Shown in pieces: positions 1 to 22,911 of a stretch of DNA of 24,316 bases. Both the position numbers and the translations under genes were made by a program. How positions within the stretch are numbered: position 1 is the first letter of the stretch; every line of letters begins with the position of its first letter. The stretch is from a virus (taxonomy: Duplodnaviria; Caudoviricetes), in the IMG/VR virus record IMGVR_UViG_3300042363_000095, positions 1 to 24,316 of that record; one strand, given 5' to 3'. Below the pieces are notes generated by a model. That model had not been told where the DNA came from, searched no databases, and saw only the letters and a list, made by a program, of their open reading frames with translations.

Positions 1-311
1 ATGTCCGATAATATGCCGATTTTCTTAATATGATCCGGCAAACGTGCTGATGTGTATTCCTTACCTATTGATTGCTCAATTCCAAAATCATCCAATTCAT
101 TCAAATCAAATGATTCTATTTTCCCATTTGGTGTATTTTCTGAAATGTGTTTGTTGCGTTCACGCATCAAAATATTGTATGTCCGCATAGTTTTACGCAA
201 TTGCGATGCACTTGCATACCCATATGTTTCGAAATACTTTTCAGAAAATGATTTGATATTTAATGGTGATGAAAAAAAATGATCTTTAATCTGATCGTGT
301 TTTTGGCCCAT
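1..311 (-). CDS. Partial ORF (runs off the left edge), probable calcineurin-like metallophosphoesterase
   Basis: Not in the ORF track. Hand translation from ATG at 311 gives MGQKHDQIKDHFFSS...RLPDHIKKIGILSD, open for 103 codons. KIGILSD matches the start of metallophosphoesterase motif I (D-x-H); the His would fall outside the window. Confidence 0.7.
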   Translation of the reverse strand, partial: MGQKHDQIKDHFFSSPLNIKSFSEKYFETYGYASASQLRKTMRTYNILMRERNKHISENTPNGKIESFDLNELDDFGIEQSIGKEYTSARLPDHIKKIGILSD

Positions 312-325
312 TTGTAGTTTTTTTT

Positions 326-359
326 CAAAATTAGCCATTTAACTAATTAGTAAAACCGA
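326..359 (-). promoter_or_regulatory. Bacteroidota-type -7 box (TAATTTTG, 326-333) within a conserved ~34-bp motif, copy 1
   Basis: Matches TAnnTTTG; 29/34 aligned columns identical to 16691-16723; contains palindrome CTAATTAG. Confidence 0.7.
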
Positions 360-360
360 C

Positions 361-400
361 AAATAAAACAAAAATGGCCGTAGATAATTCCACGACCATT
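361..400 (-). terminator. Intrinsic terminator ending the tail operon
   Basis: Minus strand AATGGTCGTGG-AATTAT-CTACGGCCATT, an 11-bp stem with two G-U pairs that form only on the minus strand, followed by TTTGTTTTATTT. Confidence 0.8.
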
Positions 401-477
401 CTGCATTCAACCTAATCAACATCCGATTCACCCATAAGATGAACGGATGTGCAACCCTAAACCTATGAAAAACAAAA
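361..477 (-). ncRNA. Candidate structured 3'-UTR small RNA (single strand - hairpin - single strand - terminator)
   Basis: Hairpin ACATCCG-TTCA-TCT/GGG-TGAA-T-CGGATGT (419-450) plus the terminator hairpin; G/U-rich linkers are complementary to phage gene leaders. Confidence 0.4.
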
Positions 478-2403
478 TTATTCCTGATATGAAACCCTGT
501 ATGTGCTTGCAACATCCGTATAATTATTCGGAATGTGAAATTGGCACGTGTACACGTTTGATTTTAACTGAACCCGAATTGAATCCACAATGGCTGAATC
601 TGTTTCCGTTAATGTTGGAAATTTGATCCATAATTTATTGGCCATAGTCATCACAGAAAAATCATCCATATTGTACAAATCGCCTTCGTATTGCATTGAA
701 TATTGCCTGAAATCATTCAATCTTTGTTGTGTGACTATCTGTTCTAAAAACAAACCATTGGCATCCTGCGCACGTTTAAATGCGTTGTTGTCCGTAAATG
801 CGCCTAAAAATACAACAGAATCCAAATCAGCCTGAACAACTCCTGTATGCTCTAAAACATCAGATGTCACAAATGTGCCGGATTGCTCCCGAATAAACCA
901 CGCTTCTTTATATACGTTTTGATCCCTGTCAATATTTCTGATGGCGCAATTGTCCAAATACATCCCTGTGTAATTTCCCGGGGAATTGATATATGGATAC
1001 GAAAATCCCAATTCCATTGTTCCGGGTTCAGGTGCTGCACCTGTTGTGAATTTAAACGTTTCAAATCTACCTTCGCCAACAACTGCCGTTTCATTCCAAA
1101 TTATTGATCCGGATGTTCCCCACGTTTTGTTCACATTGCTCCAATACTGATATGTGCCGGGCGCATATTCAATCCGTAAAAACCACGGCAATCTGTTATC
1201 GCTTCCGCCCCTGTCAATATTAACTGATATTAATACCTGATATTGGTTGCCTTTAATGGCTGATGCTGCCCCTGTACTTGCTAATCTTGTTGTGTAAACA
1301 CCCAATGCGCTTGTTCCTACATATTTAAGCGATTTGCGGCCGGCAAATGGCACAGGTACAAATTCTGTTGTGACCAATGTAGTGATCCAATTTTCGTAAT
1401 CAAATTCAAATGATGCATTGAAATTCAAATCATCCTGTTGCTGTGAAATATCAACAATTTCCTGATATTTTTTGACCGGCCTACGGGGTGTTCTGAACAA
1501 ATTTTGGCCAATCGGCTGCATATTTGTTGGCACAACTTTCAGCATATTGGTTGTCACCGTTGATTGCTCAACACCTGATGCATTATAAATCCAATATTTG
1601 ATTTCCTCTGATCCTGCATTCAAAAACCCTTGTTTGGCTGTTAAAATGCCCGATCCGGTGTATGTTCCGGCCTGTATTCCTGCAATGATTCGTTGATCAC
1701 CATAAGATGAACAATTGACAATATACCAACGGCCAAATGATTGAAAAATACGGCAATTGAATCCAAGTAATATTGAACGCAATGTCATTTTTGCATCATT
1801 GATGATGTATGAATTGTTGTAAAACCCTGATTTTTTGATTGTAATTTGATCAAATACGTTTTTCCACGCTGAATCCGTTGCAATCCTTAAATCATTACTA
1901 ATGTAGATGTCATACCCCAATTGTAAATTGGCCAATCCGTTCCACATAAATTTCCACAGGGTTTGATTATCAACCGTGACTGCCGGCATCCACGTATCAT
2001 ACCCATCTAATTGCCCCAAATTGTCTGTGGCTGTAATTGACAATGAATATGGTGTGGAAACCAATGCCTGTGAATATAGATCGTTTACAACCCATCCTGA
2101 CCAATATGTCTGCCACGATCCGGCCGATGCCTCAAAATATACCACCACTTTGTATTCACGTTCATCATACAGGTAAAAATCGTCATACGTAACGTCATCC
2201 GTTACCATCAAATTCAACGTGCATAATGATCCAATTAATGGCTCATATAAATCCTCCTCTGCCTTCCACTCTATTTCAACCGGCTCACCTGTTCCAATCA
2301 TTGGTAAAACCTCACCGGTGTAACCATTTTTGAAAATCTCAACCTTTCGTTTGTTGCCCTTTATGTCGGCAAATTCCAAACGATATTTCACACCGTATGC
2401 CAT
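478..2403 (-). CDS. Putative tail tip / baseplate hub protein (641 aa)
   Basis: Directly follows the tape measure gene; aromatic and beta-rich; internal segment (NFNASFE...YLDNCAIR) resembles a carbohydrate-binding-type beta-sandwich. Confidence 0.6.
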   Translation of the reverse strand: MAYGVKYRLEFADIKGNKRKVEIFKNGYTGEVLPMIGTGEPVEIEWKAEEDLYEPLIGSLCTLNLMVTDDVTYDDFYLYDEREYKVVVYFEASAGSWQTYWSGWVVNDLYSQALVSTPYSLSITATDNLGQLDGYDTWMPAVTVDNQTLWKFMWNGLANLQLGYDIYISNDLRIATDSAWKNVFDQITIKKSGFYNNSYIINDAKMTLRSILLGFNCRIFQSFGRWYIVNCSSYGDQRIIAGIQAGTYTGSGILTAKQGFLNAGSEEIKYWIYNASGVEQSTVTTNMLKVVPTNMQPIGQNLFRTPRRPVKKYQEIVDISQQQDDLNFNASFEFDYENWITTLVTTEFVPVPFAGRKSLKYVGTSALGVYTTRLASTGAASAIKGNQYQVLISVNIDRGGSDNRLPWFLRIEYAPGTYQYWSNVNKTWGTSGSIIWNETAVVGEGRFETFKFTTGAAPEPGTMELGFSYPYINSPGNYTGMYLDNCAIRNIDRDQNVYKEAWFIREQSGTFVTSDVLEHTGVVQADLDSVVFLGAFTDNNAFKRAQDANGLFLEQIVTQQRLNDFRQYSMQYEGDLYNMDDFSVMTMANKLWIKFPTLTETDSAIVDSIRVQLKSNVYTCQFHIPNNYTDVASTYRVSYQE

Positions 2404-2405
2404 AA

Positions 2406-4700
2406 TTATCCAATTCTGTTTCTTTGCTTTTCTGCTCTTGCTAATGCCACCACTAAATCCTGACCACGCAACACAAATTCACCTGTCATTGCTGTGCTGC
2501 CTCCGTTGCCTTGATCTAACATTCCCTGTAATTTGGACAATGGTGCGATAACCTCCGGATTCGATTTTGCGCCCGGATATTCACCCATTAAACCCATTGT
2601 TGGGCCGGATACGATACCACCTGCCGCAAATTTTGGAATTGCTGCAAATGCTGACAATACCCCACCAACTGCCGTTGCAATAAATGCCGGCTGTGCAAAT
2701 ACGGCCAATGGCCCTGTTGCTGCTGCTGATTGTGATGCTGATGCAATTGATGATGCCATTGCAGATGCTTGATTCATAATGATTTGTTTTAAAATCATTG
2801 TTCCCAATTCAACCATTGTGCGCAACATTACCTGTGCAAATCCCTCCAAACCACTTGATGCCAATCCCATTGAATCAACAATAGATTGTCCTAATGCGCT
2901 GAATGCATTTCCTGCCGTATCCGCAACCATTTGGCCAATGGCCATAATCTTTTCCATTTGGGCCGCAACCGTTGCTGCTGCTGTTGCTGCATCAGTATTG
3001 GCAAATGTGTTTATAGTTTCGGCAACTGCACCAAATTTTTCCTCTAATGCTAATAAATCCTCTTGATCATATTTTGCATTTAATGCTGCCTGATCCTGTC
3101 TGTATTTTTCATCAATTACAGATGTATCCTGATGTAATCTGTTGCGTTCATTTATTTGTTGATCGTAAACAGATGCTAAATTTTCAACCTCTTTTTGCCT
3201 TTCAGTCAAATATTTGGATGACTGTGCATCTGCAATTGCTTGATCCTCTTTTGCAACCTTTTCTTTTAATGCTGTTAATTTGTCAAATTCGCCTGCAAAA
3301 TATTTGTTGCTTTCATCAAATGCTTTTTTCCTCGCTTCTTCGGCCGGATCTTTTGCTTTTGCTTTGCTTTTTGGTGCTTTCAATCCACCAACCGGCATTC
3401 CTAATTTTAAATCGGCTTTTGCTGTTTGGGCTTCTAATTTTGCCTTTTTTTCAATCCCTGCAATTAACGCATTGTTTTGTGCTATCAATTGCAATTGGCC
3501 TTTTATTTGTTGATCAATTGCCTGTGTTGAAATACCTTGTGCCGTATTCATACCGGTAATTGGCCCACTTGCCATCCCTTTTTGCTTTTTTAGCAATTCA
3601 ATGGATGCTAAAATTTGCTTGTTTTTCTCCCGGATTGCGTTGGCATCTTTTGTTTCCTGTTCTGTTAGCTTATTATCAGGATTTAATGCTTTGGAATAAT
3701 CATATGCCGATACCGCTGCCAATCCTAACAATGTTGCTAAACCTGCAATTCCACCGGCTGTTTTTAATGTTAAATTAAATCTAACTGCTGCCGCACTCAT
3801 TAGATTGAAACCCTCAATTACTTTCGGAACAATTGTGCCAACCAAAAACAATAATGGCCCAACACCTGCCGTGATCCCTGCTAATGCAACAATAAATGTT
3901 TTTGTGCCTTCACTTGAATTTGAGAATCCTGCAATCAATGAATTTAATGATGTCACGATACTTGTGACTGCCGGCAACATAACCTGACCAAATTGCGCAC
4001 TCAATTGTTTCACACCTTCACCAAACATTCTCATTTGGTTTGCTGCAGCATCATTTGTTCGTGCGAAATCGCCTTGTGCATTGGCCGTGTTTGCCATTAC
4101 GTAATTATAACGCAACAACACCTTTTCGGCCTGTGTCATCGTATCATATTGCTTTGTCATCCCTTGCGATAATGCAAAGGTTTTCAAATTGGTTTCGGTC
4201 ATAATAACCCCCAACCTTTTCAATGATTCCGTTTCACCGGTAAAAATTCCGTTTAATGCCGTTGTGGCTTCCTTTATATTAATGTTTTTAAAGGATGATA
4301 AATCACCGGCCAATCCGACTAATGATGTGGACAATTTGGATGCCTCACCAACACCCATTCCCATTGATGTGGCCATATCGCCAAACAATGATGCCATATC
4401 CAATGCAGTACCTTCCGCAATACCAAATGATGTCAATGATGTTTTGGCAAAATCTTTCACCACATCTGATGATGATTTGAATGCCACATCAACTTTGTTC
4501 ATTGACTCATTGAAATCAGATGCCATCATCACAGATGCAGCCCCTGCGGCCAATAATGGCGCAGTCACAAATGTGGACATTGTTTTGCCTAATTCTGCCG
4601 CTTGTTTTGAAAACGACACCAATGATTTTTGTGCATCGGATAATGCTGCATTTAGATCGGCTGCATCACCGGTTATTCGGACTTTTAATTCTTCTGCCAT
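2406..4700 (-). CDS. Tail tape measure protein (764 aa)
   Basis: N-terminal LKVRITGDAADL, Ala-rich helical composition, GETESLKRLG motif, hydrophobic stretches, C-terminal FAAGGIVSGPT..GE..PEVIAPL motif; follows the chaperone pair. Confidence 0.93.
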   Translation of the reverse strand: MAEELKVRITGDAADLNAALSDAQKSLVSFSKQAAELGKTMSTFVTAPLLAAGAASVMMASDFNESMNKVDVAFKSSSDVVKDFAKTSLTSFGIAEGTALDMASLFGDMATSMGMGVGEASKLSTSLVGLAGDLSSFKNINIKEATTALNGIFTGETESLKRLGVIMTETNLKTFALSQGMTKQYDTMTQAEKVLLRYNYVMANTANAQGDFARTNDAAANQMRMFGEGVKQLSAQFGQVMLPAVTSIVTSLNSLIAGFSNSSEGTKTFIVALAGITAGVGPLLFLVGTIVPKVIEGFNLMSAAAVRFNLTLKTAGGIAGLATLLGLAAVSAYDYSKALNPDNKLTEQETKDANAIREKNKQILASIELLKKQKGMASGPITGMNTAQGISTQAIDQQIKGQLQLIAQNNALIAGIEKKAKLEAQTAKADLKLGMPVGGLKAPKSKAKAKDPAEEARKKAFDESNKYFAGEFDKLTALKEKVAKEDQAIADAQSSKYLTERQKEVENLASVYDQQINERNRLHQDTSVIDEKYRQDQAALNAKYDQEDLLALEEKFGAVAETINTFANTDAATAAATVAAQMEKIMAIGQMVADTAGNAFSALGQSIVDSMGLASSGLEGFAQVMLRTMVELGTMILKQIIMNQASAMASSIASASQSAAATGPLAVFAQPAFIATAVGGVLSAFAAIPKFAAGGIVSGPTMGLMGEYPGAKSNPEVIAPLSKLQGMLDQGNGGSTAMTGEFVLRGQDLVVALARAEKQRNRIG

Positions 4701-4711
4701 AATGTAAAGTT

Positions 4712-4749
4712 AAAAAAAAAGCCAAACCATTATTTGGATTGACTTTTTT
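4712..4749 (-). terminator. Intrinsic terminator between chaperone pair and tape measure
   Basis: Minus strand AGTCAATCCA-AATAA-TGGTTTGGCT followed by a T run; overlaps the stop at 4730. Confidence 0.55.
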
Positions 4750-5068
4750 CAATTTGATCTAAAAATGCCTTGAATTGTTCCGGTGTTGATTTTGGTTTTC
4801 CTTTCTCCAAATACACATCCTGTGGCAATGAAAATAATTTGTCCGGTGTAACTAACTGTGAACGTTTTGTGGCTTGCGAATTTACAATCATCGTGCTTGT
4901 AAATCTGTGCATTTCCCAATGTAGGTTCACGTTTACGCTCCAAGACTCCCCTAACAACGCATTTTCTTTCCACGTATTGCGCCAAAAATTGTCCGGTGGT
5001 ATTCCTGCTTGACCAATGTAAAAATCAAGCAATCGATCCCACGTTAGGGGTTTGTCGGCTTTGGGTTT
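4730..5068 (-). CDS. Tail assembly chaperone, -1 frameshift extension (gpGT-like)
   Basis: The frame of ORF 4730-5032 stays open upstream (KPKADKPLTWDRLLDFY) to the slippery heptamer at 5065-5071; its track start is only a TTG. Confidence 0.75.
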   Translation of the reverse strand, partial: KPKADKPLTWDRLLDFYIGQAGIPPDNFWRNTWKENALLGESWSVNVNLHWEMHRFTSTMIVNSQATKRSQLVTPDKLFSLPQDVYLEKGKPKSTPEQFKAFLDQIEKSQSK

Positions 5069-5436
5069 TTTGTGGATTTCTCAACGTTTCTACGCACACC
5101 TGCATTCAAGTCATTGCCTAAAATACGGGATTGCATCAATGTATTGACAATCAATGTCAATTGATTTTGATCAACATCCTCCATCCAATCACCAACCGTG
5201 TAAATCGTGTAATCAATTTCATTTCCGTTTTCTTGATCATATGCCAATAAACCGGAATAAACCAATGCACGCATTGATGACAATGATAAACCACTACTAA
5301 AAACTTTGTCTATTTCTGAAATGCTGAATCCTGATGCCTGTTCAAATGCGGCCCAAAAATTCATTGAGAAATGCAGGGTGCGAATTTTACCGCCAACATT
5401 CAATTGACAATACCCCCTTTTTTGATTGACTTCCAT
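5044..5436 (-). CDS. Tail assembly chaperone (gpG-like, 130 aa)
   Basis: Between tail tube and tape measure genes; ends with a slippery site. Confidence 0.8.
   Translation of the reverse strand: MEVNQKRGYCQLNVGGKIRTLHFSMNFWAAFEQASGFSISEIDKVFSSGLSLSSMRALVYSGLLAYDQENGNEIDYTIYTVGDWMEDVDQNQLTLIVNTLMQSRILGNDLNAGVRRNVEKSTKNPKPTNP
5065..5071 (-). other. -1 programmed frameshift site A AAA AAC
   Basis: In-frame X XXY YYZ heptamer (ACA AAA AAC); the -1 frame is that of the downstream ORF with no stop in between. Confidence 0.75.
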
Positions 5437-5454
5437 ATTTGTTTGATTAGGTGA

Positions 5455-5513: not shown

Positions 5514-5924
5514 TTATGCGTTTGTTGATTTTACGATTGCGCCTGTCAATGTGATTGATCCTGAGAATGTCACCGCTGCTTCCATTTCTGCTGATTGCTC
5601 AATTGATGCGATATATCCTTCCGCTGTATAGATCACATCGCCTGTTGCTGATGTACCGAATACACACGTGATGATTGTACGGTTCAAAACGAAATCAACT
5701 AATTCTTCCGCGTTTGCAGCCGATGCGTAGTTCACTAAACCATCAAACGAAATTTCGCCTGAACGTAAACCGCTGATTCCCTCAGACCATCCGCCTGAAT
5801 TTTTTGTTGTTGCATCTGCAATGTCTTGTGAAATAGACAATGAACATGATGTTGTGTGTGCAATGGCCGTTCCTTCAACTTTGATCAATAGGTTCGTGCC
5901 GTTAAATACTCCCGATGTTGCCAT
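5514..5924 (-). CDS. Major tail tube protein (TP901-1-like, 136 aa)
   Basis: FNGTNLLIKV...IAHTTSCSLSI..D.TTK.SGGW.E.ISGLRSGEISFDG pattern; has its own -7 box and a downstream stem-loop. Confidence 0.85.
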   Translation of the reverse strand: MATSGVFNGTNLLIKVEGTAIAHTTSCSLSISQDIADATTKNSGGWSEGISGLRSGEISFDGLVNYASAANAEELVDFVLNRTIITCVFGTSATGDVIYTAEGYIASIEQSAEMEAAVTFSGSITLTGAIVKSTNA

Positions 5925-5976: not shown

Positions 5977-6426
5977 TTATAGATTTTGCCATTGAATATT
6001 TAAGTTTTCCCAATTGGTAAACACCAAATTCCAAATCAATCGTTGATCTGTATAAATCCGGCCCGAAATTGTAAAATCAACCGAATACGTTGAAACGTTT
6101 TCCATTTGGCTGACCTGTTCCACATTGTTAATGTATCCCAATCCGTAATAAAACATCCCGGCCGACTGAAACACCCATTGCACCTCTTTTCGTGTGATAA
6201 TCCGTTCTGCAAAGTCCGTAAAATTAACCTGATCAGAATAATCCACCAACCCTTCCGCTGAAAAGGATGCCGATCGTTTACCGGCCAAAACTTCCTTCCA
6301 TCCCTGCGAATCTTTATTGGTAAATTCGGCCATATCCATTTGCAAAGACATCGTGGCTGATTTGGAATGTCCTAATGCCACATCGCCTTCATACAAAACA
6401 ACATTGGTGCCGTTTACTAATGCCAT
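5977..6426 (-). CDS. Second tail tube paralogue with Trp-rich C-terminal extension (149 aa)
   Basis: Aligns by eye with 5514-5924 (VNGTNVVL, HSKSATMSL, TNKDSQGWKEVLAGKRS, EGLVDY); extra tail DQRLIWNLVFTNWENLNIQWQNL. Confidence 0.8.
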   Translation of the reverse strand: MALVNGTNVVLYEGDVALGHSKSATMSLQMDMAEFTNKDSQGWKEVLAGKRSASFSAEGLVDYSDQVNFTDFAERIITRKEVQWVFQSAGMFYYGLGYINNVEQVSQMENVSTYSVDFTISGRIYTDQRLIWNLVFTNWENLNIQWQNL

Positions 6427-6775: not shown

Positions 6776-7171
6776 TTAAATTTCTATTTCTTCTTCTAAA
6801 TTTGTGAACTCAACACCCTCAACCCATCCATTTAAGAATCCAAATTCTTCTAATCCATCCGGACTGACAATCTGAATGGCAATAAAATCAACCTCTGTCA
6901 AATTCAATGCCTTTGATTTTTCAGTCAATTTTTTCAATCCATCTTTTGTGTATGAATAACCGCCATTTTCTTTTAAAATTAGGTTCCCATCCTTATCAAC
7001 TGATGCATTGTCTAATCGATATTCCTCTGCCTGTTCCTCATATTTATCTAAATATGGCTTTAATTTCTCATTGATTTTGGCCAATTTCTTTTGTGCCTTA
7101 GTCTTTTGATCACCGGCAAAATGGTTTAAAATGCGTGACAAAACAATGATTTCTGCGTACTTTCTTTTCAT
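6776..7171 (-). CDS. Hypothetical helical protein (131 aa), possible fibre chaperone
   Basis: Start moved to MKRKYAE at 7171 because the track start (7201) overlaps a -7 box and 7171 carries the ACCAAATCAA-N6-ATG leader. Confidence 0.7.
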   Translation of the reverse strand: MKRKYAEIIVLSRILNHFAGDQKTKAQKKLAKINEKLKPYLDKYEEQAEEYRLDNASVDKDGNLILKENGGYSYTKDGLKKLTEKSKALNLTEVDFIAIQIVSPDGLEEFGFLNGWVEGVEFTNLEEEIEI

Positions 7172-7194
7172 TTTATGTTGATTTGGTTGTTTAA

Positions 7195-7655: not shown

Positions 7656-10600
7656 TTATGCTGCGTTTAATTGTTTTTCTAATTCGGCAACTCTTTGTTC
7701 CAACCTTGCAATTTTTGCCGTGTGAACTTCACGATATGATAATGAAAGGAATCCATCCATGTTTTTTTCAACTGCGTATGGCATAAATTCCTGCGCATCC
7801 TGTGCAAAATATCCAAATTCCATTTTGCCATTTTTTTCGTACAATTTGGCTTGTAAATTTTCAATTCCTGCAATTTGCGCTGATCCATCAATTAATTTTT
7901 TCAATCTACTATCTGATGATTCAAAAAATGCTGTTGCTGTCACATAACTATAAAATGTTGCATTACCTGCTGAATGTATTCTTAATCTTTCTGACCAATC
8001 AGATGTTTGATTTCCATTATCATTTGTAAAAAATCCAATTGCAGCCCTAAAATAATTATTTTCTGCAATCTGCATAATACCGGCCGATCTTCTTGTATAT
8101 CCTGCATAATATGCCTTCCATAAAATACCGGTTCCTAATGCATTTCCACCGCCTCCTCCCGGCCCATTATATACACCGAATCGTATTACATCTGTTGGTG
8201 TTTCTGCATTATAAGGGCATAAATCTACTCTATATTCAGGTGTTGTATTTCCTGATAAACCTACTAAATTACCTGTTGTTAATGTCATTGCAATACCTCC
8301 CTGATTGCTATAAAATTGCAATCCATTTGATGCAGTTTGCGCATTTACTCCTAAATACCAAAATGATGATCCACCATTTGCAATACCAATTGCATACGGA
8401 TTATTAGGATAAAATAATCCTCTTGAATCAGAACTACCATTCCCTACCTGAAATTTAAAAACAGGATCAACAGATGTTGTTGAATTAACTAAAAAATTTC
8501 CTGCACTTGTAAATCGTGATCTTTCTGATCCATTAGTATAAAATGTTAATGCATTTGCTCCACCTGCAATTAATGCTAACGTTGATGTAGAATATAATTC
8601 AGATCCACTTGTTGTTCCATATAAATATGTTGTTAATGAATTTCCAACACCTAAATTTATTATCGATTGACTTGTTCCATTAACTGTTAAAACTGTTCTA
8701 TTAGTGTAAATTTGTAATGGTGTTGTTGTTCCTATTCCAACATTCCCATTACTCATTGCATAAATAACAGGTATTGATCCTTTACCTGATCCACCTGTTC
8801 CTGCCATTGCTTTAAAAATATACTTTGAATCATTTGATGTTGAATCAATTGCAATTCCGTATCCACCTCCATGTGCATTATAAACTGAAACATTTTCTGT
8901 TCCATTTGAATTATCAGATACAGATGCCCATGCAGATTGATTATCTACAACATGAAATCTAAATGTAGGTGGTGTATTTAATCCTAAATATCCATTGCTT
9001 GTCAAAGTCATTTTAGATGAATTATTAGTCCAAAATGTTAATGGAATTGCTGCAACTGATCCAATAATTCCTGTGTCATCAGTTTTATTATAATCAAAAC
9101 GCATTTTTAAACTGCCGGCATTATATAAAAATAATGATGTTGTTGCTGATCCACTTGCTAATGCATTGTCAATTGAAATTCCTGCATTTCCTGTTTTATT
9201 TGCATATACAACTAATGAATTTGCACCATACGAATAAAGTGGATTTCCTATTAATACACTACCTGATGGCATTAATATATTTCCACCATTACCACCAATT
9301 TGAACATTTAAACCTGCATCTGTTGCATAATCATAAGCATCTAATTTTATATTAGAACCATTATTATAAATATAAATAGCTTTATTATTATAAACTGAAC
9401 CAAATCCCGATTGTATTGTATCTGTTGTAATTAATTTCATCCATGATGGAATGCTATTAATTGTACCTGTTCCTAAAACTATTGCATTTCCATTATCATA
9501 AGCAATACTATTTCCAATTCCACTTGCTGATGTCCATTTTGATAAATAATTTGTTGTTCCTGTTCCACCAACCGGATTTGCAACACCTGTTGTCACTGAT
9601 CCATCAGCCATTAAAAATTGACTTGCTGTTCCGCCTGATTTGATAAAGGATGCCGATGTCAATGTGCCGGTATTTATCGCATTCCCTGATGGTGTTATTT
9701 GAAATTTTGTTGCACCGGCTGTTTGATCATAAATGTAAAAATAGCCTGAATCAACAAAAATTGTATAATCAGGATTTTGATCTGTATCTACAAAATACAA
9801 TCGTGGTGTTGCACCACTAATTGTTAAATCACCTGTAAATACAGGATTTGCCGCATCCGCTTTTAATGCCAACTTTGCCAATACTGCATTGCTGTTTGGA
9901 TATTCTGTTGATGATGCCAATAAATTTGACACCATTTTGTCTAAACGTTGGTATGTACTTGCTGCAACCGTTGTTGTCAAATATGTATTTGTGTCCAATG
10001 CCCATGTGTCGGCCGCCGTTTTAATTAAAAATCCGGATGTGCCGGCCAATCCTGCAATGGCTGTCAAATCTGCATCCAATGGCTGTTTTGTTGCTAATCC
10101 TGCAATTACTGCATTTACCGATGGATATTTGGTTGCCGATGCAGTTAAATCGGTAGATAAATTGGTCAATAATTGGTATGTACTTGCTGCATCCGCTGTG
10201 GTCAAATACGTGCTATTATCATACGAAATTGTCGTGCCTGATGCCTTTACAAACCCTGTTCCATCCAACTGCGCCTGTGGTGTGTAACCCAATACCGTTG
10301 CGATGCTCTTATTTTTCCACAAGCCTGTGGATGATTCATAAAATAATCCCTGATTATTGGCTTTTGATTGGATCAATACATCGTGCAATTCTTCAATTTC
10401 AAAACCGTTTTGTACGTTTACAAAGATTTCACCATTGTTTTGTTGTACACGTGTCACAACCCCAATATAAACCATATTTGCAGGTGCAACAGGTTTGTTG
10501 GCAACACCAAACAATAATGCACCATTAACACCTAACCAAACCGGATCACCGGCCTGTGCTGTTGATGTATCCAATCCGGCTAATAATCCAAATGTCACGC

Positions 10601-11381
10601 ATTTGACCAAATCATTAGTCACACCACCTGTTTCAAGTAAACCAAACGTTTTTGATGACAATGATTCACTTGCATTTGATGCTGCTGAAACAATCATATT
10701 TGTTCCATTGGCTGATGACACGTAAACCGCTGCACCTTTGGCCAATGTCTGCCCCAATTTAACCTCATTTTTGGTTTGTGTGGCAAAATTATCTATCCAT
10801 TGGGCATTGTAATCTGTTGCATCTATTTTAGACAAAATTTGACCTGCTGTTCCACCTATTGGCAACCCTCCCGGTAATGTTGGGAATGTAGCCAATGTGC
10901 CATCGCCTCGAATATATTGTGAAATCGTACCTGCCGGAACATTAAATTTTGCATTCAATGCGGCTTGCAAATCCGTTTGATTGGACAATGTGCCTGTGAT
11001 ATTTCCCCACACGGCTGCTGTTCCCTCAACTGTCCACGATCTGTCTGCGCTTAAATTATACCCAACACCATTGATTGTCAATGTGCGTTGATTTGTTACC
11101 GGTGTGTAACCTAATGCCGTAATGACCTGCGCACCTGTGATGGATGTCAAATATGTATTTGCATCCAATGATCCATCAGCCTTCAAAAATTGTGTGGCTA
11201 ATCCGTTTGTGACTTTGTATTTGTTGGCTCTTAAAAACCCATTTGAATCAATGAAAACATTTGATCCACCCCCCAATCCATCTGTGATTTGTTTTTCGCT
11301 TGCTGTTAGGATGTCATTGTCAATTGTTTTTAACAATGCTTTGTAGGTTTCCGCAACCAAATTCCCGGTTAATGATGCCAT
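7656..11381 (-). CDS. Long tail fibre with C-terminal intramolecular chaperone (Peptidase S74-like), 1241 aa
   Basis: Gly/Ser/Thr/Asn-rich with GNVGIG-type repeats; SDSRLK autocleavage motif (Ser1156, 7914-7916), GYFAQD motif and terminal coiled coil. Confidence 0.9.
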   Translation of the reverse strand: MASLTGNLVAETYKALLKTIDNDILTASEKQITDGLGGGSNVFIDSNGFLRANKYKVTNGLATQFLKADGSLDANTYLTSITGAQVITALGYTPVTNQRTLTINGVGYNLSADRSWTVEGTAAVWGNITGTLSNQTDLQAALNAKFNVPAGTISQYIRGDGTLATFPTLPGGLPIGGTAGQILSKIDATDYNAQWIDNFATQTKNEVKLGQTLAKGAAVYVSSANGTNMIVSAASNASESLSSKTFGLLETGGVTNDLVKCVTFGLLAGLDTSTAQAGDPVWLGVNGALLFGVANKPVAPANMVYIGVVTRVQQNNGEIFVNVQNGFEIEELHDVLIQSKANNQGLFYESSTGLWKNKSIATVLGYTPQAQLDGTGFVKASGTTISYDNSTYLTTADAASTYQLLTNLSTDLTASATKYPSVNAVIAGLATKQPLDADLTAIAGLAGTSGFLIKTAADTWALDTNTYLTTTVAASTYQRLDKMVSNLLASSTEYPNSNAVLAKLALKADAANPVFTGDLTISGATPRLYFVDTDQNPDYTIFVDSGYFYIYDQTAGATKFQITPSGNAINTGTLTSASFIKSGGTASQFLMADGSVTTGVANPVGGTGTTNYLSKWTSASGIGNSIAYDNGNAIVLGTGTINSIPSWMKLITTDTIQSGFGSVYNNKAIYIYNNGSNIKLDAYDYATDAGLNVQIGGNGGNILMPSGSVLIGNPLYSYGANSLVVYANKTGNAGISIDNALASGSATTSLFLYNAGSLKMRFDYNKTDDTGIIGSVAAIPLTFWTNNSSKMTLTSNGYLGLNTPPTFRFHVVDNQSAWASVSDNSNGTENVSVYNAHGGGYGIAIDSTSNDSKYIFKAMAGTGGSGKGSIPVIYAMSNGNVGIGTTTPLQIYTNRTVLTVNGTSQSIINLGVGNSLTTYLYGTTSGSELYSTSTLALIAGGANALTFYTNGSERSRFTSAGNFLVNSTTSVDPVFKFQVGNGSSDSRGLFYPNNPYAIGIANGGSSFWYLGVNAQTASNGLQFYSNQGGIAMTLTTGNLVGLSGNTTPEYRVDLCPYNAETPTDVIRFGVYNGPGGGGGNALGTGILWKAYYAGYTRRSAGIMQIAENNYFRAAIGFFTNDNGNQTSDWSERLRIHSAGNATFYSYVTATAFFESSDSRLKKLIDGSAQIAGIENLQAKLYEKNGKMEFGYFAQDAQEFMPYAVEKNMDGFLSLSYREVHTAKIARLEQRVAELEKQLNAA
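9597..11192. repeat. Dispersed short direct repeats within the fibre gene
   Basis: 9597-9620 vs 11169-11192 (22/24); 9948-9966 vs 10173-10191 (19/19); 9975-10000 vs 11145-11170 (24/26). Confidence 0.85.
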
Positions 11382-11407
11382 TTTTTACCTGCTTAATTTA
11401 ATGCAAG

Positions 11408-11857
11408 TTAAAAAATAAATAGCCTCAATTTATAAAACACGTATCCGATAATGATGACCGATTCAAAAAAGATGGTAATAATGGCCCACGCAGGAACAAC
11501 ATTTTTGATCACCTCTTTGTTGGAAATTCTAACATTGTCCGATTTTGACAATTGGTATTTGGATTTGTACACAGATTCGATTGAATCAATGTCAATTTTG
11601 GCTTCAATTCTGCCCTGTGTTGAACGCAATGTGATTGTGCCTTGTGGTATTACAAATTTGGAATAAAAGGTCGTTAAAATGCCGGCAGAATCGCACGGAT
11701 TTTCAATAATAATTGAATCACGGATTGCCTTTGTTTTATAGATCACATCCGTTGTGTGGATTGTGTCATATTTTACAACCGTTGATTCCTTAATAATAGT
11801 TTTTGCAGGTTTGCAACTTGCAAACAAAACGATGGCGATGATTAGGTAATTTTTCAT
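11408..11857 (-). CDS. Lipoprotein, putative unimolecular spanin (149 aa)
   Basis: MKNYLIIAIVLFASC signal peptide with lipobox Cys, beta-rich middle, C-terminal TM helix (WAIITIFFESVIIIGYVFY); follows the endolysin. Confidence 0.7.
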   Translation of the reverse strand: MKNYLIIAIVLFASCKPAKTIIKESTVVKYDTIHTTDVIYKTKAIRDSIIIENPCDSAGILTTFYSKFVIPQGTITLRSTQGRIEAKIDIDSIESVYKSKYQLSKSDNVRISNKEVIKNVVPAWAIITIFFESVIIIGYVFYKLRLFIF

Positions 11858-11933
11858 TTTTGTATTATTTAACATTTAATGTTGGTTATATTTTACATTA
11901 TGCCCACTTTTTGTCAATAATGTTGAATATATC

Positions 11934-12422
11934 CTACAAAATCACATACCCCTGTGCATCGACTTTTTTAGCATTATACAACGCAAACAATTGCGATGGT
12001 GTTTTGCCAAATGTCTTTTGAAAATGTGGGAAATCCGGAAATCTTTTCCAATCGCCACCCCATTCCCATCCGTACTTTTTGAACACGGCAGCAACCTCCA
12101 ACCAATCTGCTTTGCCATCCCCATCAAAATCCTTTTTAATATCCCATGAAATTGATTTGCCATCAATCAAAACAATATCAATTGCCAATCCGTAATTGTG
12201 GCAACTTAATCCCGGTTTTGCTTTTGAAACAATTGGGCCCGGCTTTGTTCTGCCCTGTGCATATATTGCCTCCTGCTCTTTGAATGTGCGCAACGTGTGC
12301 GTGAATCTACAAAATGCTTTGCCTCTCAATGCATTCACAATTTCATCATAAATTGTAACAACTTCCGCACGCAATTTTGGGTGCATCAATTGAATACGAT
12401 CCAATGTGATTTGATCTTTCAT
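11934..12422 (-). CDS. Endolysin, M15 family L-Ala-D-Glu peptidase (162 aa)
   Basis: R..KEQ..IYAQGRTKPG, S.HNYGLAID, WGGDW and D.PHFQ zinc-peptidase motifs. Confidence 0.92.
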   Translation of the reverse strand: MKDQITLDRIQLMHPKLRAEVVTIYDEIVNALRGKAFCRFTHTLRTFKEQEAIYAQGRTKPGPIVSKAKPGLSCHNYGLAIDIVLIDGKSISWDIKKDFDGDGKADWLEVAAVFKKYGWEWGGDWKRFPDFPHFQKTFGKTPSQLFALYNAKKVDAQGYVIL

Positions 12423-12709
12423 TATTCGTTTTCCTCTTTCTTTTTTACAGGTTTCCCGTGCTTTAATTTGTGATTTTCTTCACGCAGGTTTTCAATTTCA
12501 ACGGTCAATTCATCAACTTTTTTGCTTAATTGATCCACTTTCGCTTCCAACTTTTCATTCATTTGGGTAACCATATCAATCACACGTTGGGAATTTTCTA
12601 ATTGTATTGTACTGATGTCCGCATTTTCTTTGCGTTTCCCTAATATCCACGATATGAATGCCGTGACTGATGATGATGCTAGGCCAATAATGGCATCCCT
12701 TAATTCCAT
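12422..12709 (-). CDS. Putative holin (N-terminal TM plus coiled coil, 95 aa)
   Basis: Hydrophobic AIIGLASSSVTAFISWILG then a charged heptad region; stop overlaps the endolysin start. Confidence 0.55.
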   Translation of the reverse strand: MELRDAIIGLASSSVTAFISWILGKRKENADISTIQLENSQRVIDMVTQMNEKLEAKVDQLSKKVDELTVEIENLREENHKLKHGKPVKKKEENE

Positions 12710-12710
12710 T

Positions 12711-13151
12711 TTAAATTGTTTGTTGGATTTTGTTGCTTATTTCTACAATACCACGAAAATACGTGTGATCCAATTCATCATCCACAATGTACGTTGATGA
12801 CTCCTTTACACACGTAAATACATTGAATCCATCCGCAGACAAATCAAAATATCCGTTTGATCGTGTTCTAATTAATTCTAAAATTCTATTGATTGCGCTG
12901 TTGGCTGTGATTTCACCACCTGAATCAGATTGAAAACGTGTCACCACTTCAATCCGTGTGATTGTTTCTGTAATATACGATGACTGATTGAAATCGGTTT
13001 CATCAGATGACACAGAATACACCAAAATGTATGGAAACGATGCTGTTGATGGCACACGGTTATAAACACCAAATGTCACACCACCAATCACCACATTATT
13101 TGTCAAACGTGTGATGATCGCCTTGCGGATGAATTGAATCGGTTCTAACAT
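12711..13151 (-). CDS. Tail terminator/completion protein (DUF3168-like)
   Basis: VYNRVP...FPYILV pattern; fourth gene of the neck cluster. Confidence 0.8.
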   Translation of the reverse strand: MLEPIQFIRKAIITRLTNNVVIGGVTFGVYNRVPSTASFPYILVYSVSSDETDFNQSSYITETITRIEVVTRFQSDSGGEITANSAINRILELIRTRSNGYFDLSADGFNVFTCVKESSTYIVDDELDHTYFRGIVEISNKIQQTI

Positions 13152-13597
13152 TATTTTGTCAATTGTTTAATTTTGGTTTCTAACCTGTTTGTTAAATCGC
13201 CCAATTCTTTACGCAAATTTGTAAAGAAAAAAGGCCGTGCCGGCAAATTTACCTTCTTGATCCCTTTGCCCTTGAATTGCATTGCATAAGATGCCGGGAA
13301 TCCTAATTTTGTTAAATGCTGTAAATCTACCAATCTACCTGTGCCAAATTCCACATAGGGCGCATATGGCGCACGTGAAAAAATAACAACTGTGTTTTCA
13401 TTCTGCCTTTCAAATCCGGTTTGATTTCTCAAATTACCGGTGTCGTGTCGGGCATCAGTTTTCATTCCTGCAACTGCAAACATTGCAGTCTTTACCAATT
13501 CATTAGACAATTCCTGTTTGGATAATTTGCCCAATTGTTCAATCTTATTTTGCAAATCGGCTAATTGCTTAGAATCAACACCGCTTTTCTTTGCCAT
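13151..13597 (-). CDS. HK97 gp10-like tail component
   Basis: DTGNLR, YAPYVEFGTG and PARPFF motifs. Confidence 0.88.
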   Translation of the reverse strand: MAKKSGVDSKQLADLQNKIEQLGKLSKQELSNELVKTAMFAVAGMKTDARHDTGNLRNQTGFERQNENTVVIFSRAPYAPYVEFGTGRLVDLQHLTKLGFPASYAMQFKGKGIKKVNLPARPFFFTNLRKELGDLTNRLETKIKQLTK

Positions 13598-13941
13598 TAT
13601 CCCTCAATTTTGGTGGCTGTCATTTTAACCCAAAAATTCTCAAACGTTTGGAATCCGGAATTGATCCTATAATTAGCCGCAAACCCTTCAACCTGCAATA
13701 CATCCTCATTGGCAATCAAATCGGCCGTTTCCTTTCGGATCGTGATTTCAATTTCCGTTGATTTCAACCTGATTCCCATTCTTTCATCAATAGGCCCTTT
13801 GGTTTCCTGCACCCTGCACCATACGGTGTCAATGGTCACATAACCACCCGGTGTTGTGCCACCAAATCCATCTGATGTACGTGCTAAACGTTTGATCAGA
13901 ATCCGTTGTTTTAAAATTGATGCGTTGTTGCTTGTTGCCAT
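13597..13941 (-). CDS. Head closure / head-tail adaptor (SPP1 gp16-like)
   Basis: LKQRILI...DGFGG...TVWCRV...ITIR pattern and position. Confidence 0.85.
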   Translation of the reverse strand: MATSNNASILKQRILIKRLARTSDGFGGTTPGGYVTIDTVWCRVQETKGPIDERMGIRLKSTEIEITIRKETADLIANEDVLQVEGFAANYRINSGFQTFENFWVKMTATKIEG

Positions 13942-14450
13942 TAGATAAATACGGATTTTATGCCATCCAATAATTTAGCGGATGCGCTCGGAACTTCATT
14001 TACGGTCATTCCTGTCACGAAATCTGTACGATTATCGTAATATGTGGACACCATCATCAACAATGCTTGTTTCAATAATCCATCATTCATTCCCTCCGTT
14101 GTGAAATCAATTTTGATGTTTGATGCTAATGGGGAAATTTCCACCATTGGATCACCTAATCCGTAAACGGAAAATGAAACGGCAATTTCTTTCACGGTCA
14201 CATCATCAACGGATGCCACCGGCCCAAATGGAACATCAATAAAACCTGAATCAGAATAATCCAAATAATATGTTCGTTCCTTTGCGATAATATCCCGGCT
14301 CATATAATTTTCAGCCGCTGTGTGTGCTGCCTCAATCATCATATCAATCAACGTATCATCTGCCGTTGTATCAATACGGATGTAATTCTTTGCATCTGTG
14401 CGTGAAATAATTGGTGTTCCAATTACATCATTAATCTTTATTTGCCGCAT
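13941..14450 (-). CDS. Head-tail connector (gp6/gp15-like)
   Basis: AKNYIRID...DDTLI...AAENY and LKQALLMMVSTYYDNR motifs. Confidence 0.88.
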   Translation of the reverse strand: MRQIKINDVIGTPIISRTDAKNYIRIDTTADDTLIDMMIEAAHTAAENYMSRDIIAKERTYYLDYSDSGFIDVPFGPVASVDDVTVKEIAVSFSVYGLGDPMVEISPLASNIKIDFTTEGMNDGLLKQALLMMVSTYYDNRTDFVTGMTVNEVPSASAKLLDGIKSVFI

Positions 14451-14709
14451 TCTTTTTTGCTTTATGTCCTACGTGACCGTAAATCATTTTTTGTTCCTTT
14501 GTTTCAACCTCTACGGCCTCCACTTTTGTTTCAACCTCAATGGCCTCCACCTTTGGTGCAATAACTTCCGGTTGATCTTCAACCTTTGTGCCGAAATTAT
14601 TTGCCAAATAATGTCTTTCAACATCTGCCGATAATGTTACAATTTCACCGGCTTTGTGGTATCCTGATTTGTTATCAAATACCGTTTTTTTCATTAAAAC
14701 TTTGCCCAT
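14431..14709 (-). CDS. Small hypothetical protein after capsid gene (92 aa)
   Basis: Start moved to MGKVLMKK at 14709 because the track start lies in the terminator; contains a KVEAxEVET repeat. Confidence 0.7.
   Translation of the reverse strand: MGKVLMKKTVFDNKSGYHKAGEIVTLSADVERHYLANNFGTKVEDQPEVIAPKVEAIEVETKVEAVEVETKEQKMIYGHVGHKAKKNAANKD
14500..14553. repeat. Tandem 2 x 27 bp in-frame repeat
   Basis: 14500-14526 vs 14527-14553, 24/27 identical; encodes KVEAIEVET/KVEAVEVET. Confidence 0.9.
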
Positions 14710-14728
14710 AATTGTGCTATTTTTTGAA

Positions 14729-14736
14729 CAAATATA
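14729..14736 (-). promoter_or_regulatory. -7 box TATATTTG abutting the capsid terminator
   Basis: TAnnTTTG match 19 nt upstream of the ATG at 14709. Confidence 0.6.
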
Positions 14737-14770
14737 AAAAGAAAAGCCACCCAATATTTAGGTGGCCTCT
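14736..14770 (-). terminator. Intrinsic terminator after major capsid gene
   Basis: Minus strand AGAGGCCACCTAA-ATA-TTGGGTGGCTTTT followed by CTTTTT. Confidence 0.85.
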
Positions 14771-14793
14771 CTTAATTTGGAATTGTATTAAAA

Positions 14794-15990
14794 CTAAACT
14801 CCGATTGCAGCGATATCCGTTGCAAATACACCCTTAACGATTGCTAATGGTGCGTAGTTAGTTAATGCAATACGCTCAACCAAACGAACGGTCACGAAAC
14901 CATCACGAACGTTTGTTCCATCCTCACGGAAAAACTCTAATGAAAGGTTTTCACGTACCCATAATTGTGTGGCCATTGCGAAATTACCTACCATATACGT
15001 TCCTGCTGTGATCGCTGTGTTTTGAACAACCGGAATCCCTTGGAATTGTGGTTGTAAACCTGCGTAAACCTGATCTTTCAAATACTCATTTGTTGTTGAT
15101 TTCAACAATAAGATTTTTGCAAAATCTGTTGGGTTCAACATAATGTAATCAGGACGGTAGTTTACCAATGCTAATTGGTTGATTGCTACTGTTAAAACAT
15201 CAAATTGATTTGCTGCTGTGATTGCATCTGCAAATGCACCTGCTGCAAACGCTGTTGCACCTGATGTTGAAATACCGCTGATGTTTGGTGCTGTACCGTT
15301 ACCATAAAGTAATTGTGCATCTTCAACAGTCAATAATTTCTCCGGCGCACGTGCTGCCAAATATGATGTTAATTGTGGGGTGTCTGCCAACATTTCCTCA
15401 GAAATACGGAAATAAGTACCGATTTTCTGAACGTTTGCATCAAATGCTGTCAAATCGAAATCTGATTCAGTAAATGTTGCGCCCTGTGCTGTTGCTGCTG
15501 CACCATTGTCGTATGCTGTTTCACGTACATAACGAACAACATCAGAATTTGTTGAACCCTGTGCCAATAATTGACGAACGTGTACAGGACGGGTTGGATC
15601 GTACTTGATACCCGGAACGTATTGTGCAGGGATTACCTCACCTGTGAAATTGTTCGCCACAGTCATATCGCCTGCCTTGATCTCAAATTTAGCTGAACGG
15701 CTGTTGCCATTTACCAAACCATCTAATGCACCCTTTGTGATACCATCAATCAAAGATTGTTTGAATGATTGTGCGTTTGCTCCTGATGCTGTTTTTTTTG
15801 CTGCAACTTCTGCTGCATCAATACGGCTGTGGATTTCTGTGAATTTAGTTTCTAAATTCTTGATTTCGGACTTTAATAATTCATCCGCTTTGCCTGTTGC
15901 TGATGCAACTGCCTGACCTTCCGCCTTTGCGATGCGGCTATCAATTGCCGAATTTAATTCGTCTAATTGATTTTTGATTTCTTCTGTCAT
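14794..15990 (-). CDS. Major capsid protein, HK97 fold (398 aa)
   Basis: N-terminal coiled-coil delta domain; KIGTYFRISEEMLAD, EDAQLLYGNG, MLNPTDF motifs. Confidence 0.95.
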   Translation of the reverse strand: MTEEIKNQLDELNSAIDSRIAKAEGQAVASATGKADELLKSEIKNLETKFTEIHSRIDAAEVAAKKTASGANAQSFKQSLIDGITKGALDGLVNGNSRSAKFEIKAGDMTVANNFTGEVIPAQYVPGIKYDPTRPVHVRQLLAQGSTNSDVVRYVRETAYDNGAAATAQGATFTESDFDLTAFDANVQKIGTYFRISEEMLADTPQLTSYLAARAPEKLLTVEDAQLLYGNGTAPNISGISTSGATAFAAGAFADAITAANQFDVLTVAINQLALVNYRPDYIMLNPTDFAKILLLKSTTNEYLKDQVYAGLQPQFQGIPVVQNTAITAGTYMVGNFAMATQLWVRENLSLEFFREDGTNVRDGFVTVRLVERIALTNYAPLAIVKGVFATDIAAIGV

Positions 15991-15991
15991 C

Positions 15992-16675
15992 TTATTTTGA
16001 CTTAATTTGTTTGTTTAAATATGAAAATATTTCGGAAATCTCCATCTGTTTAACTTCCGGCACGGTGACAATTTCTGCCGGCCGTGTGGTAACATCAATA
16101 AACAATGATTTCAATTTCATCAACTCACTCTCAATTGCGTATCCTAATTCATCAGATACGTTTTCTTTTTTTATCATCTTTGCCAACACATCGAAACGTT
16201 TTGCCAATAATTCCTGATCTATTTCACCCTTTGCATCTGTAATCAATGCCATTGGGTTTGCGGCTAATGTAACACACGAAATTTCGTATAACTTCACCTC
16301 TTTCAATTCACGCACACCATCCTGTCTGTAATTCTTTACAATTGGCATAATACCAACGGAATTTTCCGTGATCACACCGTTTTTCATCAACAACAAAATA
16401 TCTTCACCCATTCTTGTTTTCGGAACTTCCGCAACAAAATACAATCCTTTTGCATCTTCACGTAATTCATTGAATTTACCTAATGGCTGATCAATTCTGT
16501 GTTGGTTGCAATACCGTACACGTGATCCGTTTTCAGATAATGTTTTGGTATATGCACCCGGCAAAATGATGTCATTGTCTGAATCAATGTTGCCAAATAT
16601 TGAACCGTAACCGGACACGATGCCGTTTACATCATCTATGTCATCAATCCCAATGGATGTTTGTTTGTAAATCAT
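15992..16675 (-). CDS. Prohead protease, HK97 family
   Basis: GYGSIFGNIDSDNDII.PGAY, catalytic-type H (CNQH) and S (ENSVG), LYEISCVT..ANP; start moved to MIYKQ because the track TTG is part of the -7 box. Confidence 0.93.
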   Translation of the reverse strand: MIYKQTSIGIDDIDDVNGIVSGYGSIFGNIDSDNDIILPGAYTKTLSENGSRVRYCNQHRIDQPLGKFNELREDAKGLYFVAEVPKTRMGEDILLLMKNGVITENSVGIMPIVKNYRQDGVRELKEVKLYEISCVTLAANPMALITDAKGEIDQELLAKRFDVLAKMIKKENVSDELGYAIESELMKLKSLFIDVTTRPAEIVTVPEVKQMEISEIFSYLNKQIKSK

Positions 16676-16690
16676 AACCTTTCTTTTGCT

Positions 16691-16723
16691 CAAAATTAGT
16701 CAAATAGCTAATTAGAAAACCGA
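16691..16723 (-). promoter_or_regulatory. -7 box (TAATTTTG, 16691-16698) within the conserved ~34-bp motif, copy 2
   Basis: 29/34 aligned columns identical to 326-359; upstream of the protease-capsid genes. Confidence 0.7.
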
Positions 16724-16738
16724 ACGTAAAAATTAATT

Positions 16739-22451: not shown

Positions 22452-22524
22452 TTTGTATTGATTAGGTAAATATGTGCTTTTGTTTCCGGCAGTTATTCAT
22501 CACCCAACTGCTCCACAAATTTAT

Positions 22525-22911
22525 TTAATTTTTCCATAGGTTTGACATTGGTTTTTCCCAACAATCAATCCCATAAGATTTTAGCAAAATATTAATCTGT
22601 GTATTCAATGAATCTTTCTTTGTTTGATCCATCTGATCCATTTCCATTCCAAGCATAAAAAATGCCTCCATTGCTGTGCAAGCATTTTGGAATGTATCCA
22701 ACGCATCAGGCAATTCCGGATCATCGTTGCGATCCTGTGGAAACAATACGGCCATTGTCTTTTCCAACTCCCGGATCATTTGTTTGGTGACCATTTTCAC
22801 GGCCTGTTTGTTTGCCGGATGACCGTGCCACGATCCATCAATGAAATCCAACATATTTTGGCACAGGGCAAAGAATGTCAATAGTCTAATTTTGTCTTTT
22901 GTAGTTTTCAT
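22525..22911 (-). CDS. Hypothetical protein (128 aa)
   Basis: Co-oriented ORF with ATG AAA start; no recognised motif. Confidence 0.7.
   Translation of the reverse strand: MKTTKDKIRLLTFFALCQNMLDFIDGSWHGHPANKQAVKMVTKQMIRELEKTMAVLFPQDRNDDPELPDALDTFQNACTAMEAFFMLGMEMDQMDQTKKDSLNTQINILLKSYGIDCWEKPMSNLWKN

Follow-up and report, generated by a model that had tools for sequence, protein, structure and literature searches.

A structured element behind the tail genes of uncultured phages carries conserved linkers complementary to translation starts of the phages' own genes

Immediately behind the final tail gene in an uncultured phage we find a previously uncatalogued structured element, which occupies positions 361-480 on the minus strand of the window, the 24.3-kb virus record that was analysed at its full length. 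In the direction of the minus strand it consists of a first linker, a hairpin, a second linker and a terminator. The linkers are complementary to translation-start regions of the phage's own genes and co-vary with them, which constitutes strong comparative evidence for RNA-RNA pairing. Judging from these comparisons, the element probably acts as a 3'-end antisense RNA that represses the translation of the phage's own genes in trans.

An earlier, sequence-only reading of the window had proposed an RNA that occludes the start regions of several phage, host or competitor genes. Its core stands, in that the minus strand bears a structured, terminator-ended element with covarying stems and with conserved linkers antisense to starts. 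Its set of targets had to be redrawn: the starts for which co-evolution with the element is seen are those of the phage's own genes, namely a tail-chaperone start and lineage-specific early and middle starts, and the best target of linker 1 lies outside the window. Host genes and distant competitors find no support as targets; non-cognate lineages pair much worse.

The element and its genomic setting

All main genes of the window, including those for terminase, capsid, tail tube and tape measure, are on the minus strand (Table 1). Close relatives have a size of 30-34 kb, so an early block is absent from the window. The host likely belongs to the Bacteroidota, as indicated by the matches of the tail protein, by the leaders in the window, which are A-rich and lack Shine-Dalgarno motifs, and by the occurrence upstream of several genes of TAnnTTTG, which we take to be the Bacteroidota promoter element. 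In tblastn searches, the tail protein matched only Flavobacterium, Cellulophaga and Salinibacter phages (15 records, <30% identity); the matched proteins are structural, and the cultured relatives are thus distant (<30% identity). A search of GTDB genomes for a tail relative, a host or a prophage found none.

Table 1. Positions in the window of the element, of neighbouring genes and of predicted target sites
Feature	Position	Strand	Remarks
Promoter-like box of the next gene (phosphoesterase)	319..367	-	TAATTTTG at 326-333
Predicted intrinsic terminator	361..402	-	stem 371-402 and U tract
Linker 2, core UUGAUUAGGUU	405..419	-	antisense to leaders at about -22 to -7
Hairpin 1, 14-15 bp stem, 3-nt loop	419..450	-	directly 5' of linker 2
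Linker 1, U/G-rich	452..480	-	antisense to the AACCU-AUG-AAA-AAC-GAA early start beyond the window; also to AAACCU-AUG starts of other middle genes
Last tail gene, 641 aa	478..2403	-	its stop codon starts the element; tblastn matches to phage structural proteins
Tape measure gene	2406..4700	-	phrog_1535, E 8e-44; forms the upstream portion of the predicted transcript with the element at its end
Hairpin and U tract	4714..4750	-	flanked by chaperone unit and tape measure gene; shared by the window and 9/9 relatives
Tail-assembly-chaperone-like gene (G of a G/GT pair), 130 aa	5044..5436	-	between tail tube and tape measure genes; assigned by synteny and slippery site
Slippery site A AAA AAC	5065-5071	-	opens the -1 frame into the ORF 4730-5032; G/GT frameshift candidate
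Conserved target, leader of the chaperone-like gene	5443..5452	-	10/10 match to linker 2
14/15 match, leader of a 131-aa gene (6776-7171)	7175..7189	-	the hairpin base must open
Linker-2 match, leader of the DUF3310 gene (22233-22451)	22458..22467	-	CCTAATCAA kept in 13/15 close genomes in which the gene was located
Best linker-1 helix in the window, 14 bp	22530..22543	-	at the start codon (ATG) of a conserved ORF of 14 codons that immediately precedes the DUF3310 gene

The sequence-only reading had placed linker 1 on the reverse complement of 452-477, the hairpin at 419-450 and linker 2 at 401-418, and its coordinates and sequences are correct. The 171-nt region has a folding z-score of −3.5, with none of 200 shuffles equally stable, and the linkers are partly unpaired in the predictions (0.35-0.75 for linker 2). 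The sense strand outfolds the antisense strand in all ten elements listed, and G-U pairs occur on the sense strand only. Rfam 15 covariance models, scanned over positions 200-700 of the window, returned at best 18.7 bits against a gathering threshold of 50 and hence no family, c4 included; seven distant loci had no hits either.

Small proteins encoded in the region were considered and rejected. One on the plus strand would start at 465, with an ORF that measures between 6 and 53 aa and changes frame among relatives; one on the sense strand would start at the hairpin ATG, with an ORF of 10-61 aa or, in 6 of 38 cases, one that reads into the next gene. A promoter of the element's own at the tail stop codon is not conserved: TAnnTTTG overlies this codon in the window as well as in 3 of 11 relatives, is found at +14 in one and is absent there in seven. 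A scan for sigma-70 promoters gave matches at chance levels only. Sequencing runs matching positions 1-3000 of the window did so with small shares only; the assembled contigs of RNA runs X4, X10 and X20 cover the tail and tape measure genes in part, leave the element outside and are uninformative, and those of run X9, which is probably DNA, span the element.

The 49-nt box that precedes the phosphoesterase gene has a second copy at 16684-16732, before the gene 15992-16693. The two copies are 73% identical and carry CTAATTAG and TAATTTTG; they are possibly the signature of a late promoter. About 4-5 nt before the tape measure ATG we observed a TAACTTT(A/G)/TAATTTTG motif (4701-4715 in the window, with equivalents in G018, G021 and G024), which directly follows the terminator-like hairpin, and a nearly leaderless tape measure transcript is possible. 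Two tail tube paralogues (PF06199) lie side by side at 5514-5924 and 5977-6426, with the motif TATATTTG between them at 5965. In some relatives, the ORFs for terminase, portal or head morphogenesis are much longer than in the window (692, 574 and 571 aa; G004 rotated 10958-13036, G017 11927-13651 and G004 14448-16163), which suggests insertions. An 87-bp inverted duplication in G009 (rotated 8928-9014 / 9576-9662) is located at a contig break and is probably an assembly artefact.

Conservation among related phages

A search with the C-terminus of the tail protein yielded 40 loci, two of which stop short of the tail stop codon; the 38 that reach past it all have the element. Across these 38 loci, 10 of 12 columns of the linker-1 core and 9 of 11 columns of linker 2 are invariant, compared to 11 of 60 third codon positions of the tail gene and 5 of 17 columns of the upper hairpin. 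In an alignment of 27 sequences, 99.7% of the 702 cells over hairpin and terminator are paired, three hairpin pairs have changes on both sides, and the covariation score was reached by none of 500 shuffles. Covarying stems and conserved linkers, which the sequence-only reading had proposed to look for in relatives, are therefore both present. The linkers did not prove free to vary, and the decayed plus-strand gene start that it had named as an alternative reduces to a start without a conserved ORF.

The architecture extends to lineages with tail proteins of about 50-60% identity, where the linker-hairpin-linker arrangement is kept in 16 of 17 distinct elements, as is the terminator wherever the sequence covers it; the exception, L263, has a single linker and a terminator. 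In all 14 elements chosen, a hairpin of 14-15 pairs with a 3-nt loop adjoins a UUAGGUU-type core, which is common to all mid-distance lineages. The sequence of the hairpin varies among these elements and nearly every position of it shows several pair types. In a far group (∼35% identity), one conserved C/U-rich linker precedes the terminator. Beside distant homologues of the phosphoesterase (L199-L201, L204-L210), which have different upstream genes, the element is absent, indicating that it travels with the tail gene.

Predicted pairing with translation starts

For the analysis of pairing we used 30 records, all but two of them rated 95-100% complete, with start sites defined by a simple ORF-based rule. 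Searches of the long linkers against all ATGs with RNAduplex were dominated by bulged chance hits; we therefore replaced them by searches for ungapped helices, allowing G-U pairs, with shuffles as controls. Genomes of one lineage are not independent of each other.

When the first 95 nt past the tail stop were used as query in seven lineages, pairing was on average considerably stronger with own starts than with the starts of others (−20.1 versus −14.6 kcal/mol, permutation p=0.0002, of 5040). The same test on a set of sister genomes, which is not independent and reuses G025, gave p=0.0012, and outside start regions there was no cognate effect (p=0.16 and 0.11). Compared with the 95-nt stretches that follow all other stop codons, the element came out ahead in four of five genomes; in the fifth, 2 of 54 equalled it. 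Each genome contains between 1,485 and 6,245 long-range helices; in 7 of 18 genomes the longest of these connects the element with a start, which is true of the second-longest in four more genomes and of neither in the other seven. Changes on the target side within helices are G-U compatible. Targets are thus enriched at start regions, an outcome on which the sequence-only reading had staked its proposal. No own-start enrichment was found for linker 1 in mid-distance lineages or for the single linker of G025, and no strong target was seen in G025 or G020.

Within the window, ACCTAATCAA occurs three times, once in the element (410-419, plus strand) and twice on the minus strand in the leaders of the chaperone-like and DUF3310 genes, both times at −16 to −7 from the ATG. 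The shuffle expectation for this is 0.04, a value that applies to a pre-chosen word, with about 108 10-mers open to choice and eight such matches in existence. Also present, as described before, are a 14/15 match at 7175-7189 and two partial matches, one at 22911 and one at 24147. The segment 408-422, from which the 14/15 match derives, takes in 4 nt of the hairpin base; the leader at 7175-7189 is conserved in the close clade and has no cognate preference across lineages. For linker 1, the start of the 14-codon ORF (MEKLNK/MERLIK, ∼22490-22537) provides a match of 14-18 bp in the window and its close relatives, where this ORF recurs, overlapping the end of a 128-aa gene. By themselves the matches in the window are modest evidence; the strong evidence comes from the relatives.

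The tail-assembly-chaperone-like gene

The chaperone-like gene of the window has a slippery site that opens into the next ORF, which we take to be the G/GT arrangement of tail assembly chaperones. Tail assembly chaperone genes are reported to undergo frameshifting (PMC10885494). The gene was located in 17 of the 18 genomes examined, and in 13 of these 17 the last linker ranks its start first among the starts in the last 68% of the genome. Overall, the chaperone start ranks between 1st and 7th of 42-64 starts, and 0-6 of 200 shuffles did as well; in G025, the gene is absent from the top five partners. Covariation between chaperone leader and linker 2 in six representatives had the lowest p-value of 32 families, though at p=0.011 uncorrected it is not significant after correction.

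In the far group, the C/U-rich linker, which is unrelated in sequence, pairs just within the start of the same chaperone gene, with ungapped helices of 9-14 bp at 50 of 51 loci (one of the 51 with a mis-called stop) and with energies of −15.7 to −17.1 kcal/mol in three genomes. The first 30 nt past the tail stop of L272-L351 form a strongly conserved C/U-rich tract that is followed by a terminator; besides the chaperone start, this tract pairs with that of an 84-aa gene preceding the tube genes. Since the terminator-like hairpin at 4714-4750 would put target and element on different transcripts, pairing with the chaperone message would likely take place in trans.

Lineage-specific targets

In the clade of the window, linker 1 pairs over 14-20 bp (14 bp in G001) with the start of a 154-aa gene that follows the ssDNA-annealing gene; this applies to all 16 genomes listed, and all positions of the helix that are not Watson-Crick pairs are G-U. 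No Pfam or PHROG family is assigned to this gene, which is located beyond the window. As the early block is absent from the window, the strongest target of the window's own element is deduced from its relatives. Weaker partners of linker 1 are other AAACCU-AUG starts of middle genes, including that of a Cro/CI-like HTH gene.

Linker 2 has different partners in different lineages. It matches the leader of the ERF gene over 20 of 20 positions and a second leader over 15 of 15 in G018/G027. In G019/G021/L259 there are 18-21 bp with one leader and 15 bp with the gene that follows the annealing gene, and in G024/G026 the match measures 14 bp. In G022/G023, linker 2 and the 5' arm of the terminator pair with the beginning of a coding region over about 30 nt (−39.5 kcal/mol), and one position of the helix differs between the two genomes on both sides, in a compensatory manner. 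The matched codons form an N-terminal extension, which is different or absent in other lineages.

Within the close clade, a U/G allele of linker 2 agrees with the MV(T/N)FQQY leader in 15 of the 16 genomes listed, G011 with its deletion allele being left out of the count. The allele split is followed by 70 of 3,892 informative columns, 32 of 167 of them in the MV(T/N)FQQY module 4 kb from the element, 16 of 171 near kb 11 and 2 of 242 beside the element. The body of the MV(T/N)FQQY gene follows the allele slightly better than its leader does (16/16 versus 15/16), so the unit linked to linker 2 could be the protein.

This last observation belongs to the most serious alternative, that the action is reversed and that early or chaperone mRNAs act on the element, through invasion of the terminator base leading to read-through, through cleavage or through sponging, or that the linked MV(T/N)FQQY protein binds linker 2. 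We consider it unlikely. In G022, G023 and L517, the duplex does enter the 5' arm of the terminator by about 10 nt, and for a protein partner there is the 16/16 agreement of the gene body with the linker-2 allele; in most lineages, however, the helix is confined to a linker, the partners are specifically start regions, which are relevant to translation rather than to antitermination, and the next gene has a promoter-like motif of its own.

Proposed mechanism and remaining alternatives

As an antisense RNA, the element would be transcribed late, as the intact 3' UTR of the tape-measure/tail transcript or, alternatively, in the form of a processed hairpin-linker-terminator RNA of about 85-115 nt, and would pair in trans with messages of the phage's own genes, lowering their translation. 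The predicted helices cover −23 to +30 and pairing across this region would block access of the 30S subunit, in a host that initiates without Shine-Dalgarno pairing. Initiation in F. johnsoniae reportedly depends on low structure, along with adenines at positions −3, −6, −12 and −13 (PMC6847099); from these start requirements, the extent of the helices and the precedent of GibS and FopS we infer repression by occlusion. The deeply conserved role would be to trim the output of the tail chaperone (G/GT), and the stronger, lineage-specific pairings would damp early and middle genes of the ssDNA-annealing/replication block once the virion genes are on. With late genes among the targets, this would not be a clean early shut-off.

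A broader reading makes the element a family-wide regulator, in which an ancient antisense brake on the tail-assembly chaperone has been redirected in each lineage towards different early genes by copying of sequence between RNA and target. The copying would, in one lineage, have written an extension of about ten codons into the N-terminus of the target gene. We offer this reading tentatively, as a possibility with somewhat less for it than against it.

If the element acts as proposed, finished tail transcription would feed back on tail stoichiometry and on early-gene shut-off without a protein regulator, a 3' end thus exerting late-to-early and late-to-late translational feedback, and the co-evolution of seeds and targets would be visible across a phage family. 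To our knowledge, early-gene shut-off and the dosing of tail-assembly factors in small phages are poorly known outside a few models. The RNA-target pairs named above, with their natural compensatory mutations, are open to direct reporter testing in Flavobacterium johnsoniae, and the hairpin-seed-terminator arrangement would offer a compact natural scaffold with which to repress genes by antisense in a phylum without Shine-Dalgarno pairing.

The element could also be what remains of a gene leader with its start, or an inverted copy of one, kept leader-like by copying at the DNA level, with the terminator alone being functional. Its plus strand reads CTAATCA-hairpin-AACCT-ATG-AAA-AAC, which is the anatomy of apparently real leaders in the other phages L063, L070, L122 and L091, found with a pattern derived from the element; furthermore, perfect matches exist (20/20) and these phages encode ssDNA-annealing proteins. 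An inverted leader may explain how the element originated, but not how it is maintained: the plus-strand ORF has 6-53 aa in shifting frames, G-U pairs in the stem occur on the minus strand only, the linkers are more conserved than neighbouring synonymous sites, target-side changes inside the helices are G-U compatible, and the far group reaches the same chaperone gene through a different sequence. We therefore regard a mere relic as very unlikely. The four leaders, of the form CTAATCA-hairpin-ATG AAA AC, represent a class of hairpin leaders.

Still less probable, in our view, is that host genes or competing phages are the main targets and that the matches to own genes reflect a common style of Bacteroidota leaders. 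The UUAGGUU core shared by all mid-distance lineages would fit such a role, the starts of sister phages pair as well as own starts, and the CTAATCA-hairpin-ATG leaders of unrelated phages would suit both linkers, yet the pairing is lineage-specific, the leader motif is taxonomically diffuse (Bacteroidota account for about 16 of 80 listed hits, by record titles) and the GTDB search gave no host. Equally improbable is a DNA- or protein-binding site common to leaders and element in opposite orientations, as might be suggested by a short motif that recurs in several leaders, at a constant position and in some cases close to TAnnTTTG, given that the matches are 18-30 nt long, reach into coding sequence, are lineage-specific and tolerate G-U pairs, and that the motif is placed exactly between two RNA stems.

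Comparison with known antisense RNAs

By analogy, the element would work like GibS/FopS and c4/sar; it falls outside c4, having no model match and different targets, and the comparison with GibS/FopS is one of descriptions. Both GibS and FopS are reported to pair with start regions in their Bacteroides host, and FopS-10 to block translation in vitro, with rescue by compensatory changes (PMC7366714, PMC11697453). These RNAs of Bacteroides thetaiotaomicron resemble the element in their long single-stranded seeds (two in GibS) directed at start-codon regions, in a phylum without Shine-Dalgarno pairing, as well as in their hairpins, intrinsic terminator and several targets (PMC7366714, PMC11697453). 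They are described as host RNAs, mostly with promoters of their own, a seed at the 5' end and metabolic targets, whereas the element is located at a predicted phage 3' end, has its seed between two stems, shows no conserved promoter of its own and has own-gene targets and lineage-specific seeds. Extended seed pairing near start codons of the GibS/FopS type is also predicted for the element, with helices of 10-21 bp and partial accessibility.

The c4 RNA of P1/P7 and sar of P22 are phage RNAs that, as reported, target the ribosome-binding region of a phage mRNA by pairing in trans and present their seeds through structure, the specificity of c4 differing between related phages (PMC12197685). 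As far as sequence can tell, the element likewise pairs with ribosome-binding regions of phage mRNAs encoded elsewhere. According to the same source, c4 and sar serve the immunity of temperate enterobacterial phages, target an antirepressor mRNA and reportedly carry their seeds in loops (PMC12197685). The element, in contrast, lies at the predicted end of the tail transcript, has no Rfam match and is directed at the tail chaperone and at early and middle genes; its top targets are chaperone, ERF and neighbouring early genes and include no antirepressor mRNA.

In icaR of Staphylococcus aureus, a motif in the 3' UTR is reported to pair with the translation-initiation region and to block initiation (PMC3868564). 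Its partner is the Shine-Dalgarno region of its own mRNA (PMC3868564), whereas the predicted partners of the element are other genes; a conserved terminator-like hairpin separates the chaperone gene from the element in 10 of 10 genomes, and the tape measure start, which would allow pairing within the same mRNA, is not a leading target. The gene prtV belongs to Vibrio cholerae. Its 3' UTR is the source of CisR, a 3'-derived RNA reported to repress a phage mRNA, that of CTX-phi (PMC13250501), whereas the element would derive from a phage structural transcript.

A literature search found no sRNA from a Bacteroidota phage. No such element was found in titles and abstract openings, and in the searched text of a review of phage sRNAs (PMC12197685) the strings 'Bacteroid' and 'Flavobacter' do not occur. 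In Flavobacterium phage 11b, the region after the last late gene showed no clear pairing with the starts of its tail region. After gene 49 of this phage (L392:15113-15225), we noted TATATTTG, two small hairpins and a terminator within 110 nt, which resembles a small stand-alone transcript in a cultured phage.
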